Source: Crocosphaera subtropica ATCC 51142
GTDB lineage: Bacteria; Cyanobacteriota; Cyanobacteriia; Cyanobacteriales; Microcystaceae
DNA length: 32,000 nucleotides
Assembly (NCBI RefSeq): GCF_000017845.1
Contig: NC_010546.1
Location: 3,480,001 to 3,512,000, forward strand
Direction: 5' to 3'
Positions 25,599 to 32,000 of this stretch are shown piece by piece. Numbering within the stretch: the first letter of the stretch is position 1; each line of letters begins with the position of its first letter. A program made the position numbers and the translations under genes. Below the pieces are notes generated by a model, which was not told the origin of the DNA, ran no database searches, and worked only from the letters and a program-made list of their open reading frames with translations.

Positions 25599-25644
25599 AT
25601 GACTATTTTTTCTTAATTAATTGCAACATTTAAGGGTGTCAATT

Positions 25645-26922
25645 ATGGCTCATATTGTTGTTATTGGCGGAGGAATAGGAGGATTACCAACAGCCTATGA
25701 ATTGCGCCATTTACTCTTGTCTTCCCATCAAATTACCCTTGTTTCTAATCAACCAAACTTTACTTTTATTCCGTCTTTACCTTGGGTAGCATTAAACTTA
25801 ATTTCATTGCAACGTATTCAATTAGATATAAAGTCTTTACTACAAAAACGAGGCATTAACTGGCTTTTAGGGACAGTAACTCAGCTTGAGCCAGAAAAAA
25901 AACAGATTTTAGTGGAAAATGAGACAATAACCTATGATTATCTTATCGTTGCTACCGGCGCTGAACTGGCTTTAGATACCATTCCTGGACTTGGACCTGA
26001 GATGGGATATACTCAATCTGTGTGTAATCCTCACCATGCAACGCAAGCGGGTGAAGCTTGGTCTGAATTTTTAGCTGATCCTGGCCCGTTAATTGTGGGG
26101 GCAGTTCCAGGGGCAAGTTGTTTTGGACCAGCCTATGAATTTGCGATGTTAGCAAATGCAACCCTCAGACAGTCTCAACCGTGGAAACAAGTTCCTATTA
26201 CCTTTGTCACCCCAGAACCCTATGTGGGACATTTAGGGATAGGTAGCATGGCTAACTCTCAGGCATTAGTTAGGGAACTCATGGCAAAGCATAACATTAA
26301 TATTCTAGAAAATGCTGCTATTTGTCATATTTCACCTGATACGATTTACTTATCCAACGGTGAAAGGTTGCCCTTTAAGTATGCCATGGTGTTACCTCCC
26401 TTTCGAGGACCTAGTTTCTTGCGAGAAATCCCTGGCTTAACCGATGAACAAGGATTTTTACCGGTTTTGCCCACTGGGCAACATCCTGACTATCCATCTC
26501 TTTACGGTATCGGTGTTGTTGTCAAAATTAACCCCCCAGAAGTCACATCTATCCCCATCGGGGTTCCCAAAACTGGACAAATGACAGAAGCAATGGGAAT
26601 GGCAGCAGCCCATAATATTGCTTGTGAATTAGGAGAACTATCGAGTCATTTGATGATTCCAACCCTAGAAGCCTTATGTTTGGCTGATTTTGGAGAAACA
26701 GGGGTTTGTTTTCTTGCTGCCCCCATTTTACCCGATGCTATCACAGGACAACGCAGAAAAGCGATCGCCTTACAAGGACAATGGGTGAATTGGAGTAAAA
26801 CGGCGTTTGAGCAATTTTTCTTATTAAAAATGCGTTTGGGTTGGTCAGTTCCTTGGTTTGAACGGTTAGCTTTGCAAGGGTTGGGATTATCTTTAGTTAA
26901 ACCCTTACCAAATCAAACCTAG
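25645..26922 (+). CDS. sqr: Sulfide:quinone oxidoreductase, type I (SqrA-like)
   Basis: The FAD-binding motif VVIGGGIGGLPTA is present. Three conserved SQR cysteines sit in context: SVCNPHHA, GASCFGPAYEF and LCLADFGE. GVPKTGQM is also present, and similarity to Aquifex/cyanobacterial SQR as I recall them runs along the whole length. I chose ATG 25645, because the track's start at 25621 is a TTG. Confidence 0.8.
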   Translation: MAHIVVIGGGIGGLPTAYELRHLLLSSHQITLVSNQPNFTFIPSLPWVALNLISLQRIQLDIKSLLQKRGINWLLGTVTQLEPEKKQILVENETITYDYLIVATGAELALDTIPGLGPEMGYTQSVCNPHHATQAGEAWSEFLADPGPLIVGAVPGASCFGPAYEFAMLANATLRQSQPWKQVPITFVTPEPYVGHLGIGSMANSQALVRELMAKHNINILENAAICHISPDTIYLSNGERLPFKYAMVLPPFRGPSFLREIPGLTDEQGFLPVLPTGQHPDYPSLYGIGVVVKINPPEVTSIPIGVPKTGQMTEAMGMAAAHNIACELGELSSHLMIPTLEALCLADFGETGVCFLAAPILPDAITGQRRKAIALQGQWVNWSKTAFEQFFLLKMRLGWSVPWFERLALQGLGLSLVKPLPNQT

Positions 26923-26954: not shown

Positions 26955-27542
26955 TTAATCTGGGATAAACACCCCATACATTCCCCTTAAATCTCCTGGT
27001 TTAAAATCATAAGCTAAATCTTGGGGATATTTTTCTTGTACAAATTTGGGTCGAGAATTTTTTGTACCATGACAAGCTAAACAACTCCCTTCCACATTAA
27101 TCCGTCGATAATAAGCGGTTCCTTTTTCTCCCTTCATCGTTTCTCGTTGCCAAAACCCCATTAACTTTGGATTTTCCTCAAATTTTGCTAAGGCTATTTT
27201 TTCGGTTAAATTATTAGGAGAATGGGAAGGATTGCGATATTTTTTAGCAATTTGTCTGACTTGCCAGCCATTTTCTTCACTGAGTTGTTTTGCCCTCATT
27301 CCAACTGGTTGACACACTTGTTTAAAGGTTTCTAAATTAGGGGTTTCTGGCTGATCTTTTAAAGTTGAAGCTAACTGCGATCTCATCCTATCAAGTGCTT
27401 CAATTTCTTGAACCGCTTTCGTTAATTGATTGGGATCAGTTTCAGCATTGGCTACAGTAGTATTCCCTATAATTAGTAACAGTATTAGAGGAAAAACAAT
27501 TAACATCAAACCCAAAAACTTGAAAATCTTTTGATGATACAT
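26955..27542 (-). CDS. Tll0287-like (formerly DUF3365) secreted c-type heme protein
   Basis: A Sec signal peptide ends in VANA|E. There is a single CxxCH heme c site (C154-L-A-C157-H158) in the family-typical context CLACHG...P.....YP.D.A..FKPGDLRG. One further Cys (Cys77, VCQPVG) could supply a Cys axial ligand. Confidence 0.65.
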   Translation of the reverse strand: MYHQKIFKFLGLMLIVFPLILLLIIGNTTVANAETDPNQLTKAVQEIEALDRMRSQLASTLKDQPETPNLETFKQVCQPVGMRAKQLSEENGWQVRQIAKKYRNPSHSPNNLTEKIALAKFEENPKLMGFWQRETMKGEKGTAYYRRINVEGSCLACHGTKNSRPKFVQEKYPQDLAYDFKPGDLRGMYGVFIPD

Positions 27543-27562: not shown

Positions 27563-27949
27563 TTATTCTGATTTATTTCCCGTTACATTAGGATAGTCTA
27601 ACTGCCACCATTGACTCATTCCTCCTGTGACATTCAAGACCTGAGTAAAGCCCATTTTTAGTAAAGAATTAGCAGCAATGGGACTTCTATGAGCCGTTAA
27701 ACAAATAACAGCAATAGGTTTATCTTTTGGTAAATCTCGGAACCATTTCGGGACAATAAGCTGCCGTAAATAAGCATTTTGTGCCATTAAAATGCGAGGT
27801 AAACTAAGATTAATGGCTCCCTTGGCATGACCCCTAACATATTCAAATTGTGAACGAACATCAATCAATAAAGGAGAATTGGATAATTGATGAAAGTCTT
27901 GAGGAGAAATATTCGTCACCGATGGTTTTAAAGAAGTTGTTGCAGTCAT
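27563..27949 (-). CDS. Single-domain rhodanese (sulfurtransferase)
   Basis: The rhodanese fold motifs are LIDVRS..EY..GHA.GAINL and the active-site loop C83-L-T-A-H-R-S (CxxxxR[ST]). Confidence 0.75.
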   Translation of the reverse strand: MTATTSLKPSVTNISPQDFHQLSNSPLLIDVRSQFEYVRGHAKGAINLSLPRILMAQNAYLRQLIVPKWFRDLPKDKPIAVICLTAHRSPIAANSLLKMGFTQVLNVTGGMSQWWQLDYPNVTGNKSE

Positions 27950-28075: not shown

Positions 28076-28609
28076 TTAAACCCACCAAGGGCGTTCACCC
28101 GTACGAGGATCGGTTTCAGTCCAAGGAGAAAGCCAAATGGCATCATCGATCACTGCGACATGAACCAGTTTTAAAGGACGGTTAGCGGGCCCCCGAACCA
28201 CGGAACCCTCCGCATCGTAACGGGAACCATGACAAGGACATTGGAATTGTTCGGCCGTCTCATTCCAAGGAAAGGTACAACCTAAATGAGTACAATTATC
28301 GACAATACCCCGTCCATCTAAGGTATTAGCATCAGTGACAATAAGATAAGTGGGTTCTCCAGCTAAACCAGCCACTAATGCACGGGTTTCCGGGGGATTT
28401 TCTAGAATTTGGGAGGCAGGAATGGGATTTCCTAGTTTATCTTTAGCCAATATTGCTCCTCCTTCTCCTGTTTCTTTGGGTGGAGTGAAGAATTTAGCCG
28501 CAGGATAAAGGGCCGATCCGGCAACTACTGCAACCGTCGATCCGGTTAAAAAGTTTAACAGTTGTCGTCTGGATAAGGAAGTTTGATCGAAAGAAAGGTT
28601 ATTGTCCAT
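28076..28609 (-). CDS. petC: Cytochrome b6f-type Rieske [2Fe-2S] protein paralogue (PetC2-like)
   Basis: A Tat-like RRQLLNFL motif and TM anchor are present. The Rieske boxes are CTHLGC and CPCHGS. The C-terminus PWTETDPRTGERPWW is typical of PetC. The position directly downstream of a D1' psbA is the basis for the PetC2 assignment. Confidence 0.8.
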   Translation of the reverse strand: MDNNLSFDQTSLSRRQLLNFLTGSTVAVVAGSALYPAAKFFTPPKETGEGGAILAKDKLGNPIPASQILENPPETRALVAGLAGEPTYLIVTDANTLDGRGIVDNCTHLGCTFPWNETAEQFQCPCHGSRYDAEGSVVRGPANRPLKLVHVAVIDDAIWLSPWTETDPRTGERPWWV

Positions 28610-28683: not shown

Positions 28684-29760
28684 TTAGCTATTTACTGCCA
28701 TAGCAATGGGTTGAGAGTCCCCTAACGCTAGATCAAGAGGAAAATTATGGGCGTTGCGTTCGTGCATCACTTCTATGCCGATGTTGGCACGGTTAATGAC
28801 ATCGGCCCAAGTATTGATCACTCGTCCTTGAGAATCGAGAACTGATCCGTTAAAGTTAAAGCCATTAAGGTTAAAGGCCATGGTGCTGATACCAATGGAA
28901 GCAAACCAAATTCCGATCACTGGCCAGGCAGCTAAGAAGAAGTGCAAGGAACGGGAATTGTTAAAACTGGCATATTGGAAGATTAATCGTCCGAAATAGC
29001 CATGAGCAGCCACTAAATTATAGGTTTCTTCTTCTTGTCCGAATTTATAACCTTGATTGGCTGATTGCGCTTCAGTGGTTTCTCGAATTAAACTAGAAGT
29101 CACTAACGATCCGTGCATGGACGCAAACAACGCACCGCCAAACACACCCGCAACCCCTAATTCATGGAATGGGTGCATCAAAATATTATGTTCGGCTTGG
29201 AAGACAATCATAAAATTGAATGTCCCTGAAATGCCCAACATTAAGCCGTCGGAAAAGCTTCCTTGTCCAATGGGATAAATTAAGAGAACGGCCGTTGCAG
29301 CAGCGACAGGGGCAGAAAAAGCAACAGGAATCCACGGGCGCATCCCTAAACGGTAGCTTAACTCCCATTCTCGCCCCATATAAGCAAAAATTCCAATTAA
29401 AAAGTGCAGCACAATTAATTGATACGGGCCGCCATTGTACAGCCATTCATCTAAGGTAGCTGCTTCCCAAAGGGGATAAAGATGCAAGCCAACGGCGGCA
29501 GAAGTCGGCACAACGGTGGCACTAATGATGTTATTGCCATATAACAAAGACCCAGAAACGGGTTCCCGAATGCCATCGAGATCCACAGGGGGCGCAGCAA
29601 TAAAGGCCAGAATAAAGACGATAGCAGCTACTAACCCCGTAGGAATTAATAAAACCCCAAACCAACCAATATATAGGCGATTTTCAGTGCTAGTAATCCA
29701 ATTACAGAACTTTGACCACAGATTACTCTGTCTGGATGACTCCAACGAAGAAATAGTCAT
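28684..29760 (-). CDS. psbA: Photosystem II D1 protein, D1' (low-oxygen / PsbA2-like) isoform
   Basis: This is a full-length D1 of 358 aa with one extra N-terminal residue. All Mn4CaO5 and TyrZ residues are present in context: Y161, D170, E189, H190, H332, E333, H337, D342 and A344. Isoform-marker substitutions, by alignment to canonical D1, are G80A (NIISA), Q130E (GREWE), C144P (PWIPV), F158L (AVLLIY), M172L/P173M (SDGLMLG) and A at 286 (WFAS). Confidence 0.9.
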
Positions 29761-29818: not shown

Positions 29819-29834
29819 CTATACAACAGTATAG
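29819..29834. promoter_or_regulatory. Perfect 6-4-6 palindrome upstream of psbA (candidate operator or 5'UTR stem)
   Basis: The sequence is ctatac-aaca-gtatag at 29819-29834, 59-74 nt upstream of the psbA ATG. A second inverted repeat, tagaag-N11-cttcta, lies at 29790-29812. Confidence 0.4.
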
Positions 29835-29903
29835 CTAATTAGTTATACAATTTAATTAACTTTTGACAAAATGACTAAATAGTTATATTTTAAAAATAGG
29901 AAA

Positions 29904-29935: not shown

Positions 29936-29971
29936 CTAACTTAAACAGAATTTTACTTGAGAGTAACCATA

Positions 29972-30499
29972 ATGAGACATCAACACCGCAGACAGAGACG
30001 TTTTAACCATTCTTCGACGGCAGCAACTTGTTTAGCCGTAATGGCCACAACAAATTTAGTTTCCCAACCCGTTTCCACTAGCAAGATTAACTTAGATGCT
30101 AGAACCCAACAGGCTATGATTGATGCTATCAATGATGAATATTATGCCCGTGCCTTGTATAATGCCATCATTGAGAAGTTTGGCCAGGTTCGTCCTTTTA
30201 TTAACATTGTTCAAGCTGAAAATCGCCATGTACAGCTATGGAATAAGTTATTTAACCAATATGGCTTACCCATTCCTGAAGATGCTTATGCTGGAAAAAT
30301 AGAAGCTCCTGACAGCCTCAAAACAGCCTGTCAGATGGGGGTTGAGGGAGAAATTGCCAATGTGCAAATGTACGATAAATTCCTGGAATTTGTCCAAGAA
30401 AGGGATTTAAGGGCTGCCTTTACACAACTGCGTGAAGTATCTCAAAACAGACACAAAGTCGCCTTTGAACGTTGTCTATCAAGGTTTTCGGACTTCTAA
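29972..30499 (+). CDS. DUF2202 ferritin-like (four-helix-bundle) domain protein with a basic, signal-like N-terminus
   Basis: The pattern is AINDEYYARALY ... FINIVQAENRHVQLWNKLF..YGLPIP ... GVEGEIANVQMYDKFL ... LREVSQNRHKVAFERC. This matches the two-lobed DUF2202 pattern (E...Y / ExxH repeated). I chose ATG 29972, because 29957 is a TTG. Confidence 0.6.
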   Translation: MRHQHRRQRRFNHSSTAATCLAVMATTNLVSQPVSTSKINLDARTQQAMIDAINDEYYARALYNAIIEKFGQVRPFINIVQAENRHVQLWNKLFNQYGLPIPEDAYAGKIEAPDSLKTACQMGVEGEIANVQMYDKFLEFVQERDLRAAFTQLREVSQNRHKVAFERCLSRFSDF

Positions 30500-31030
30500 A
30501 GCTAACCACTCCCACAACACAGTACGACATTGAAGACAAGTTAAATCTTTCAATAACTGATTAATTCCTTCGGAATGGTTGGGATAAGTTCTTCCCAACC
30601 ATTGATCACGGATAATGGTATGAGGGGAAATTTCTGCCACAAAACCATATAGTTTTTGATTGGAAAAAGAGCTATTAATGGCCCAACCTATGTGATTAAG
30701 AGGTGTTAATGTCAGAATATCTGAATGTAAGAGTCCTAGTTCTCGATGGAGTATTTCATAAGCATTAGCATGAAGACTTAACCCTTGAGTGACCCTTCCT
30801 CCAGCAAAATCAAGGGTTACTTCTTTAACCCCAGGACGATAGGACAAATTTGGTAAAATAAGCTGATTATTTTGAATAGTAATAATAATCAAAGAATCAG
30901 CTTTTTCGACTCGCCAATATTCTAAGATTTGTTGACGTTCATCTTCTAATTTTTCCCCGATGAAAGTTAGCCAAGGCGTATGAATTTCAATAAAACGTTC
31001 AAGGGTGTGCCAATGGGATTGCTCTTTCAT
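30479..31030 (-). CDS. Nudix-fold-like protein with a degenerate Nudix box
   Basis: The layout resembles ADP-ribose-pyrophosphatase-type Nudix proteins (W..LE......TPWL ... EYWRVEKADS ... SYRPGV....LDFAGGRV). The box region GGRVTQGLSLHANAYEILHRELGL lacks the catalytic REUxEE glutamates. Confidence 0.4.
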   Translation of the reverse strand: MKEQSHWHTLERFIEIHTPWLTFIGEKLEDERQQILEYWRVEKADSLIIITIQNNQLILPNLSYRPGVKEVTLDFAGGRVTQGLSLHANAYEILHRELGLLHSDILTLTPLNHIGWAINSSFSNQKLYGFVAEISPHTIIRDQWLGRTYPNHSEGINQLLKDLTCLQCRTVLWEWLALEVRKP

Positions 31031-31059: not shown

Positions 31060-32000
31060 TTAATATCCCTCTCCTTCGTTAACAACCTTGCCCCGAAACA
31101 CCACATAATTATAGATATTATAAAACAACATGACTGGGATCAGAAAGCCGATAAAAATCAGCATAAAGACTAAAGCACTCGGAGCAGCAGCAGCTTGATA
31201 AATAGTGATTTCCGTGGGAATAATATAAGGAAAAACAATTAATCCTAACCCAATAAAACTCAATAAAAAGATAAGGATAGTCCAAATAAAAGGAGTGCTT
31301 TCTTCTCGTTGATTGAGACTTTGTAGAAGTAACCAAACTAACACCATCCCCAGAATCGGGATGGCAGCAAAAATATAAACCAAAGGCGCACTAAATAAGC
31401 GATCTCTGAGGCTTTCATAAAAAATTGGGGTGGTAATCGTAATTAAAATTGCCCCTAATAATGTGGTTATCCCTGCTAATTTAGCGGTTCGATAATGGGT
31501 GTTTTGTAGTTCTCCCTCTGTTTTCAAAATTAAGTAGGTTGAACCGATCAAGACATAACCCTGAATCAAGGTTAATGCCACCAATAGATTGCGCCAGTTT
31601 AACCAATCCCAGGTAGACCCGATAAAATGCCCCATTGCATCGACTTTGATTCCTTGAATCACCGTACCGAGAGCAAATCCTTGGCCTAAAGCGGCCAGAA
31701 AACTACCGATTCCAAAGGCAAAATTCCAAAATATCTTATTATTAGCCTGTTCTCGAAATTCAAAGGCAACTGCCCGAAAAATGAGGCCAAAAATCATGAT
31801 AAAAATGGGAATATACAGAGCATTGAGAATCGTCCCGTAAGCCAAAGGAAACGCCCCGAATAACCCGCCTCCCATCAAGACTAACCAAGTTTCGTTAGCA
31901 TCCCAGATATTCCCTAAACTGGTCATTAACAGGGTTCTTCGTTCTTCGTTAGAACTGGTGAGAGACAAGATACCGACTCCGAGATCAAAGCCATCTAACA
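31060..32000 (-). CDS. cydB: Cytochrome bd quinol oxidase subunit II (CydB); the N-terminus runs off the window
   Basis: The minus-strand frame stays open to base 32000 and there reads ..LDGFDLGVGILSL, the conserved CydB N-terminal motif. Downstream come GGGLFGAFPLAYGT..NALYIP and multiple TM helices. The track's start at 31968 is an internal TTG. Confidence 0.85.
   Translation of the reverse strand, partial: LDGFDLGVGILSLTSSNEERRTLLMTSLGNIWDANETWLVLMGGGLFGAFPLAYGTILNALYIPIFIMIFGLIFRAVAFEFREQANNKIFWNFAFGIGSFLAALGQGFALGTVIQGIKVDAMGHFIGSTWDWLNWRNLLVALTLIQGYVLIGSTYLILKTEGELQNTHYRTAKLAGITTLLGAILITITTPIFYESLRDRLFSAPLVYIFAAIPILGMVLVWLLLQSLNQREESTPFIWTILIFLLSFIGLGLIVFPYIIPTEITIYQAAAAPSALVFMLIFIGFLIPVMLFYNIYNYVVFRGKVVNEGEGY

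Follow-up and report, generated by a model that had tools for sequence, protein, structure and literature searches.

Does a gene for a Tll0287-like c-type heme protein lie near a gene for D1', an atypical D1 protein of photosystem II (PSII), by virtue of a partnership between the two proteins, or does the linkage reflect something else? The question is raised by a 32,000-nucleotide (nt) stretch of the genome of Crocosphaera subtropica (Cyanothece) ATCC 51142 (contig NC_010546.1, positions 3,480,001 to 3,512,000; the whole stretch is called the window below), in which the gene cce_3408 closes a string of four minus-strand genes that begins with psbA2. The matter bears on the function of Tll0287, on the selective advantage of D1', and on cyanobacterial photosynthesis under sulfide, and the gene sits in the low-O2-induced psbA2 cluster of a well-studied strain. 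Our analysis confirms cce_3408 as the gene of an ortholog of Tll0287, a His/Cys c-heme protein of cyanobacteria, and shows its linkage to D1' to be real but facultative. The tie to psbA is looser than those to the genes for sulfide:quinone oxidoreductase (SQR; gene sqr), DUF3122 proteins, ArsR-family regulators, and the alternative Rieske protein PetC2, and is probably subordinate to them. On balance, we lean toward the reading that the Tll0287 ortholog is part of a sulfide/low-O2 regulon and an accessory of SQR-dependent sulfide oxidation, not a dedicated PSII subunit.

The Tll0287 ortholog and its gene string

The genes on which the argument turns are as follows.

26955 to 27542, minus strand: cce_3408, Tll0287 ortholog (tll0287), 195 amino acids (aa), ATG start with AGGAG 13 nt upstream
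27563 to 27949, minus strand: cce_3409, single-domain rhodanese (PF00581, E 4e-19), active-site loop C83-LTAHR-S, without a signal peptide
28076 to 28609, minus strand: cce_3410, alternative cytochrome b6f Rieske subunit, PetC2-like (PF25471 and PF00355), with CTHLGC and CPCHGS motifs
28684 to 29760, minus strand: cce_3411, psbA2, D1' (group 3; PF00124, TIGR01151)
25645 to 26922, plus strand: cce_3407, type I sqr, convergent with cce_3408, 32 bp between the stop codons

Read along the minus strand, the order is psbA2 (D1') > petC2 > rhodanese > tll0287, with the last gene tail-to-tail with the type I sqr. The intergenic gaps are 74 bp between psbA and petC2, 126 bp between petC2 and the rhodanese gene, and 20 bp between the latter and tll0287. 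A promoter/terminator scan found no terminator-like site inside these gaps, a result that says no more than "no obvious terminator"; the sites were fewer overall than in shuffled sequences.

The cce_3408 protein, 100% identical to ACB52756 / WP_009545422 of this strain, matched the Pfam family PF11845 ("Tll0287-like") with E 4.2e-30 and 105.5 bits (cut-off 24.1) over profile positions 5–144 of 144, and its residues 21–194 matched the chain of the Tll0287 crystal structure, 5b82_A, with E 3.3e-55; the NCBIfam scan contained no model for Tll0287. The protein has a single CxxCH site (C154-L-A-C157-H158) and the C-terminal motif Y172-P-Q-D-L-A-Y-D-F-K-P-G-D-L-R-G187. Cys77 pairs with residue 68 of 5b82_A in a gap-free part of the alignment, and His158 pairs with residue 145, past a four-residue gap; these two residues of 5b82 are reportedly the axial heme ligands (Motomura 2017). 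An alignment of 19 cyanobacterial homologs shows no variation at Cys77, Cys154, Cys157, or His158, and a single c-type heme with His158/Cys77 axial ligation is predicted. The N-terminus, judged by eye, is signal-like, with a basic n-region, a hydrophobic core of 17 residues, and then VANA/ET, and it forms a helix at residues 3–26 in the AlphaFold2 model; the product is predicted to be exported by a Sec-type route to the thylakoid lumen or periplasm. This model, built on the homolog alignment (mean predicted local distance difference test score, pLDDT, 81.5; predicted template modeling score, pTM, 0.71), gave one strong match in a Foldseek search of the PDB, namely 5B82 (E 2.8e-17, target-normalized template modeling (TM) score 0.85, root-mean-square deviation 2.7 Å over 161 residues). 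The next matches, all with E > 0.01, were Cache/PAS sensor domains of chemoreceptors and histidine kinases, and the modeled fold is Cache/PAS-like, as in Tll0287.

The psbA gene of the string carries the D1' signature G80A/F158L/T286A, together with C144P and P173M (residues A80, E130, P144, L158, L172, M173, and A286), and keeps all ligands of the Mn4CaO5 cluster (D170, E189, H332, E333, H337, D342, and A344); the numbering is that of Synechocystis D1, in whose sequence the standard residues stood where expected. Among PDB entries, the product of this gene came closest to T. elongatus PsbA2 (7yq2_A), with PsbA3 and PsbA1 ranking lower. The signature was defined in PMC2776144, where, with reference to Summerfield 2008, psbA2 of Cyanothece 51142 is stated to be a low-O2-induced D1' with these substitutions. 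In a 2025 proteome (PMC12518598), the cce_3411 protein was detected and, labeled psbA2, was 8.7-fold more abundant in darkness than in light with nitrate. Full-text literature searches returned no mention of cce_3407, cce_3408, or cce_3409.

The neighboring SQR matched the structures from A. ferrooxidans (3sz0_A, E 3.8e-91) and Aquifex (3hyv_A, E 3.4e-90), and the three catalytic Cys of type I SQR align in it (SVC(N), GASCFGPAYE, and ALCLADFG); it is labeled sulfide-quinone reductase in GenBank, and NCBIfam types this SQR weakly. The Rieske protein scored 292.8 bits against the NCBIfam PetC equivalog (cut-off 250), reached E values of about 1e-54 with the main PetC of solved b6f complexes, and is 68–76% identical to the PetC copies in islands of other orders. 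For the rhodanese, the NCBIfam matches were GlpE/PspE-like and below the cut-off. An earlier note on this stretch, made from its letters alone, had described a Tll0287-like open reading frame (ORF) with a signal peptide, a single CLACH site, an extra Cys77, and a YP.D.A..FKPGDLRG motif, co-oriented with a PsbA2-like psbA and beside an alternative Rieske protein and sulfur enzymes; the searches above bear out this description throughout, as does the superposition on the Tll0287 structure that it had suggested.

Recurrent linkage with atypical psbA genes

A scan of species-representative genomes with the homolog alignment yielded 220 relatives, from which the 80 best loci were kept, every one of them cyanobacterial. 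These loci, numbered L001 onward, cover 1.18 Mb and extend at most 10 kb to either side of the Tll0287 gene, and their neighboring genes were counted by tblastn with the window proteins. The flanks were full in 33 of the 80 loci (counts for these follow in brackets), and many of the others were short contigs.

A psbA gene occurred within 10 kb of the Tll0287 homolog in 15 of the 80 loci (10/33). All 20 psbA genes in those loci carry A80/L158/A286, and none encodes a standard D1; by our own estimate of about four copies per 5 Mb, approximately one psbA of any type, mostly standard, would be the baseline in 1.18 Mb. Twelve of these genes, in 11 loci, keep every Mn ligand and are D1'/group 3, and the other eight, in eight loci, lack several of the ligands (E170, A/Q/D189, A333, V/L342) and are similar to the "rogue" group-2 D1. 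The Mn-ligand-deficient genes (L009 3701-4690, L010 3607-4593, L026 1555-2595, L029 1615-2655, L036 1034-2080, L039 18096-19124, L040 2551-3579, and L079 5310-6380) are usually located in the petC2–rhodanese arm, and a complete D1' gene is also present in L029, L036, L040, and L079.

In a neighbor-joining (NJ) tree of the Tll0287 proteins, the psbA-linked loci fell on at least nine separate branches, with several layouts. In L068, the order is psbA > tll0287 > DUF3122 with a 273-bp gap; the two genes are divergent in L040 (397 bp) and convergent in L004 (319 bp), and L029, L036, and L079 show sqr > tll0287 > DUF3122 > DUF2202 > psbA. The co-oriented string psbA > petC2 > rhodanese > tll0287 was found only in the window, L001 (Cyanothece BG0011), and L002 (C. 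chwakensis), and neither DUF3122 nor ArsR genes were found in the L001 and L002 loci. This recurrence on so many branches and in varied layouts indicates that the association between Tll0287 and atypical psbA is real and recurrent. A division of Tll0287 into sqr-linked and psbA-linked paralog clades was considered and rejected, as the contexts are scattered in the NJ tree.

Closer partners of Tll0287

Other genes accompany tll0287 more often than psbA does. A DUF3122 gene (PF11320, E 1e-40 to 1e-54) is located immediately downstream of tll0287 in at least 57 of 78 eligible loci; sqr occurs in 44 of the 80 loci (19/33) and, in 34 of 72 eligible loci, is immediately upstream and co-oriented; petC2 occurs in 38 loci (17/33) and rhodanese orthologs in 22 (13/33). 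The dominant layout has rhodanese <, petC2 <, and in some cases psbA < on one arm and sqr > tll0287 > on the other. In about 20 loci, the apparent sqr–tll0287 gaps of 400–900 bp hold a Cys-rich gene of the ArsR/SmtB family, giving a sqr-arsR-tll0287-DUF3122 unit. Across cyanobacteria, the core context is operon-like, sqr > (Cys-rich arsR) > tll0287 > DUF3122, usually beside a divergent petC2–rhodanese pair and often beside an atypical psbA, either D1' or Mn-ligand-deficient.

The small ArsR/SmtB protein between sqr and tll0287 has five conserved Cys (AIC..E..V.EIC...ACRR.G.CRYY...LC), as in L010 9229-9528, L052 9655-9957, L057 6301-6621, and L017 9599-9916. Genes of a second ArsR class are found at other positions in the loci, and at least one ArsR-family gene was present in 36 of the 80. 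The DUF3122 proteins are exported (examples: L081 10589-11065, L008 10598-11083, L016 10624-11175, and L028 5555-6172), and no mention of DUF3122 was found in the literature search.

The same context is seen in Thermosynechococcus, the genus in which co-purification with PsbA2-PSII was observed. The T. vulcanus protein shares 99% identity with the 5B82 chain, and its gene stands in the order SQR-like > Tll0287 > DUF3122, the SQR-like protein being 55% identical to the window SQR, and no psbA, petC, or rhodanese gene was present within 10 kb. The psbA2 gene of a Thermosynechococcus adjoins psbA1, in a neighborhood unrelated to tll0287. For the reverse view, eight group-3 D1' genes from diverse genomes were sampled (n = 8), and a PF11845 gene was found within 10 kb of none of them (0/8); PetC2 was found at three of these loci, SQR at two, with an sqr fragment at another (L085), and an ArsR-family gene at four. 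In L085, a DUF3122 gene lies directly upstream of the D1' gene, with the sqr fragment between the two. L083 (663-9796), from Gloeothece citriformis PCC 7424, is a large sulfur island without Tll0287; the genes ahead of D1' there are petC2, three with a rhodanese domain, two heterodisulfide-reductase-like (Fer4/CCG) pairs, and those for a flavoprotein, an ArsR protein, and a metallo-beta-lactamase.

The expectation of the earlier note that PF11845 and D1' genes would be linked across genomes was thus upheld in one direction, with atypical psbA genes in 15 of 80 loci and none of the 20 genes standard, but not in the reverse sample, and the links with sqr, DUF3122, and petC2 are tighter. Together, the partner synteny (sqr, DUF3122, ArsR, and PetC2), the Thermosynechococcus arrangement, and the empty reverse sample point to co-regulation in a sulfide/low-O2 regulon and do not show physical association with PSII. 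The note had also held that genomic linkage would speak for a functional Tll0287/D1' relationship and against a purification artefact. Linkage does give independent support for a biological relationship, but it points to co-regulation and cannot settle the question of the artefact.

A candidate operator shared by the island genes

Two palindromic elements precede psbA2 in the window.

29830 to 29847, no strand: 18-bp palindrome TATAACTAATTAGCTATA, a candidate operator located 69 bp before the start codon of psbA
29870 to 29887, no strand: degenerate copy with 3 mismatches, forming a direct repeat with the first at an offset of 40 bp, within the intergenic region between the divergent psbA and DUF2202-like genes

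The palindrome has the form TATAAC-N6-GTTATA and is kept in the psbA promoters of L001 and L002. Its perfect form, TATAACTAATTAGTTATA, was scanned over 1.40 Mb, with 100 composition-matched palindromes as the control. There were six matches with at most one mismatch; at up to two mismatches, there were 23, against a control mean of 0.18 and maximum of 7, and at up to three, 54, against a mean of 2.57 and maximum of 22. The element lies 60–130 bp upstream of sqr in L003, L007, L009, L010, L013, L038, and L050, and 66–75 bp upstream of D1' genes in the window, L001, L002, L040, L068, and L088. Copies also precede petC2, tll0287, and DUF2202-like genes, as well as genes for rhodanese, metallo-beta-lactamase (persulfide-dioxygenase-like), thioredoxin-reductase-like, ACR3/SBF, and ArsR-family proteins. 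Examples are found at L001 7685-7702, L002 7723-7740, L010 7717-7734, L003 6666-6683, L068 8591-8608, L088 9918-9935, and L084 11540-11557. The gene content under the palindrome resembles that of persulfide-responsive regulons (BigR, SqrR, and CstR), and an ArsR-family repressor may bind the candidate operator and so co-regulate D1', PetC2, SQR, and Tll0287. A counterpart in Thermosynechococcus was sought and rejected: the regions upstream of sqr and psbA2 there share only the 10-mer TAACTATATA, which overlaps a -10-like sequence and is not significant.

Interpretation of the linkage

In the reading toward which we lean, Tll0287, together with DUF3122, would work on the lumenal/periplasmic (positive) side of the membrane as an accessory to the oxidation of sulfide by SQR. 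The Cys-ligated heme of Tll0287, with its low potential, would be the site at which sulfide or sulfane sulfur is sensed or processed, and one ArsR-type regulator would turn the protein on together with D1' PSII and PetC2 b6f. Co-expression with D1' could then bring Tll0287 into PsbA2-PSII preparations without a structural role in PSII. The literature on Tll0287 (bioRxiv 10.1101/2023.02.13.528314) gives a midpoint potential (Em) of approximately -255 mV and a proposed role in an H2S-oxidizing system or as a redox sensor; it also states that production of the protein requires the psbA2 promoter and that the protein co-purifies with PsbA2-PSII. The result is a testable regulon hypothesis for the sulfide/low-O2 remodeling of the photosynthetic chain, with cce_3407–3411, DUF3122, the ArsR genes, and the candidate operator as targets.

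Several points weigh against this reading. The 80 loci are the best matches to the query, not a random draw, and are phylogenetically non-independent; in 11 of the 33 loci with full flanks, sqr, petC2, rhodanese, and psbA are all missing nearby. In the 32-kb window itself, DUF3122 and ArsR genes were not found, sqr is convergent and so lies outside the tll0287 transcript, and the co-transcription of cce_3408 with psbA2 is putative. The palindrome is barely recognizable in Thermosynechococcus, and the sidedness of cyanobacterial SQR in the membrane is putative. Furthermore, a heme at -255 mV would be a poor acceptor between SQR and plastoquinone, which makes a role as the "cytochrome subunit of SQR" unlikely; we down-weighted this simple role also because the protein has one heme, of low potential, and a fold unlike that of cytochromes.

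The alternative closest to the question posed at the outset is that Tll0287 is a dedicated lumenal partner of D1'-PSII, as an extrinsic subunit, an assembly factor, or a donor-side protectant, and that the linkage reflects this partnership. Every neighboring psbA is atypical, and tll0287 closes the psbA2 string in the window. D1' and Tll0287 genes are juxtaposed without sqr or petC2 in L068, L040, and L004, and the run tll0287 > DUF3122 > DUF2202 > psbA occurs in L029, L036, and L079; the reported co-purification with PsbA2-PSII and psbA2-promoter dependence point the same way. However, the Thermosynechococcus gene is located beside sqr, with psbA2 elsewhere beside psbA1, none of the eight D1' loci had Tll0287 within 10 kb, 65 of the 80 Tll0287 loci lack psbA in the sequence covered, and eight of the 20 linked psbA genes are Mn-ligand-deficient. 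The crystal structure of PsbA2-PSII (7yq2) is not known to include a chain of Tll0287. A dedicated PSII partner is, in our view, improbable.

We give similarly little weight to the view that Tll0287 acts outside the cytoplasm as a stand-alone sensor of redox state or gas (sCache_heme), reporting anoxia or sulfide to a signaling partner in the membrane and regulating the island without any sulfur chemistry. The Cache/PAS-like fold, with chemoreceptor and histidine-kinase sensor domains as the next structural matches, would suit such a role, the protein is predicted to be exported, and the adjacent DUF3122 could be the partner; the Em reported for Tll0287 is also close to that of the sulfide/sulfur couple. 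On the other hand, Tll0287 has no output domain, no kinase or methyl-accepting chemotaxis protein gene is conserved in the loci, and cytoplasmic ArsR-type regulators are already present in the island. In a stand-alone Pseudomonas homolog, moreover, the Cys/His ligation is stable and O2 and nitric oxide (NO) are bound weakly (bioRxiv 10.64898/2026.02.01.703092), and such poor ligand exchange speaks against a sensor role.

That the D1' linkage in the window is a functionally meaningless, lineage-specific rearrangement of the Crocosphaera clade is very improbable: the co-oriented layout is confined to the window, L001, and L002, and DUF3122 and ArsR, its customary neighbors, are missing from the window, but psbA linkages arose independently on at least nine scattered branches with differing layouts, none of the 20 neighboring psbA genes is standard, and the motif in the window psbA promoter is common to sqr and tll0287 promoters elsewhere.

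The regulon reading can be taken further, in a form that we regard as speculative and doubtful as a whole. In this form, D1'-PSII, PetC2-b6f, type I SQR, rhodanese and persulfide-dioxygenase-like enzymes, and Tll0287/DUF3122 would constitute one regulon under an ArsR-family (persulfide-type) repressor acting through TATAAC-N6-GTTATA. The "low-oxygen induction" of D1' would really be a response to sulfide or sulfane sulfur, and Tll0287 would be a lumenal redox element coupling sulfide oxidation to a remodeled PSII donor side, which it would protect or feed with electrons.

Relation to known systems

Tll0287 of T. elongatus/vulcanus (PDB 5B82; PF11845 / DUF3365 / "sCache_heme") is approximately 54–60% identical to cce_3408 over the mature protein. 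The two share the CxxCH site, the aligned axial Cys and His, the fold, a stand-alone exported form, and a gene close to a type I sqr. They differ in gene context: in Thermosynechococcus, the order is sqr > tll0287 > DUF3122 with psbA2 elsewhere, whereas in the window, tll0287 belongs to the psbA2-petC2-rhodanese string, with sqr convergent and without DUF3122.

His/Cys-ligated c-hemes are known in the sulfur-oxidizing proteins SoxAX, TsdA, and DsrJ, and the likeness to cce_3408 lies in a Cys-ligated low-potential c-heme encoded beside a sulfide-oxidizing flavoprotein and sulfurtransferases. In contrast to these proteins and to flavocytochrome c sulfide dehydrogenase, cce_3408 has a single heme and a Cache/PAS-like fold instead of that of a class I cytochrome c, and there is no kinship in sequence or fold. 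Membership of cce_3408 among the cytochrome subunits of the flavocytochrome c sulfide dehydrogenase type was considered and set aside, given the single heme, the Cache-like fold, and the convergent sqr in the window; sqr > tll0287 is co-oriented in other genomes, and the likeness to a flavocytochrome c unit is functional, not one of membership.

Summerfield reportedly described, in 2008, a low-O2-induced cluster of psbA and an alternative Rieske gene in Cyanothece 51142. The window holds the Cyanothece 51142 copy of this cluster, with a D1'-type psbA, petC2, and a rhodanese gene in one orientation, and our finding therefore falls in a known system; the difference is that no Tll0287/DUF3365 member is mentioned in the papers searched on that cluster. 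The psbA/petC/rhodanese cluster is induced under microoxic conditions in Synechocystis (slr1181-slr1185) and Acaryochloris (AM1_0448-0451) (PMC5295598).

In cyanobacteria, group 2/3 psbA genes near sqr, and sqr near arsR, have been reported (Grim & Dick 2016, PMC5061849), as has petC2 next to sqr (PMC11304991). The loci of Grim & Dick 2016 resemble those described here in having a type I SQR, an ArsR-family gene downstream, and an atypical psbA a few genes away; they differ in that the genes after sqr-arsR are here identified as tll0287 and DUF3122, and in the shared palindromic promoter element. A full-text literature search for DUF3365/Tll0287 together with psbA or sqr found nothing. What was already known comprises the family membership (in UniRef and the RefSeq annotation), the psbA/Rieske/rhodanese cluster, and the proximity of psbA to sqr and of sqr to arsR. 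Modestly new are the synthesis, the pairing of Tll0287 with DUF3122, the exclusive association with atypical psbA, and the shared candidate operator.

Further genes of the window

The start of sqr is annotated in two ways: the ORF list gives TTG at 25621 (433 aa, as in GenBank ACB52755), and RefSeq gives ATG at 25645 (425 aa), which places the GGGIGG motif for binding of flavin adenine dinucleotide (FAD) at the N-terminus of SQR. An epimerase/DUF1731 gene ends only 46 bp upstream of sqr, so that the two may be co-transcribed. Beyond psbA2, three further genes extend toward the end of the window.

29957 to 30499, plus strand: DUF2202-like, ferritin-like product of a gene divergent from psbA (PF09968, E 1.2e-4, passing the cut-off narrowly)
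30479 to 31030, minus strand: orf183, conserved 183-aa protein without a Pfam or NCBIfam match, overlapping the convergent DUF2202-like ORF
31060 to 31968, minus strand: cydB, cytochrome bd quinol oxidase subunit II (PF02322, E 3e-81), running toward the window end

The DUF2202-like protein matched MJ0754 weakly (E 1.6e-3); its homologs occur in 16 of the 80 Tll0287 loci (10/33) and also beside sqr in L084. The orf183 product contains a degenerate Nudix-like stretch, with a non-significant match to NudE (E 0.2), and has homologs in 12 loci (8/33). Homologs of cydB were present in six loci (3/33); bd oxidases are insensitive to sulfide, in keeping with the sulfide theme of the island. The other 25 kb of the window encode unrelated housekeeping functions.

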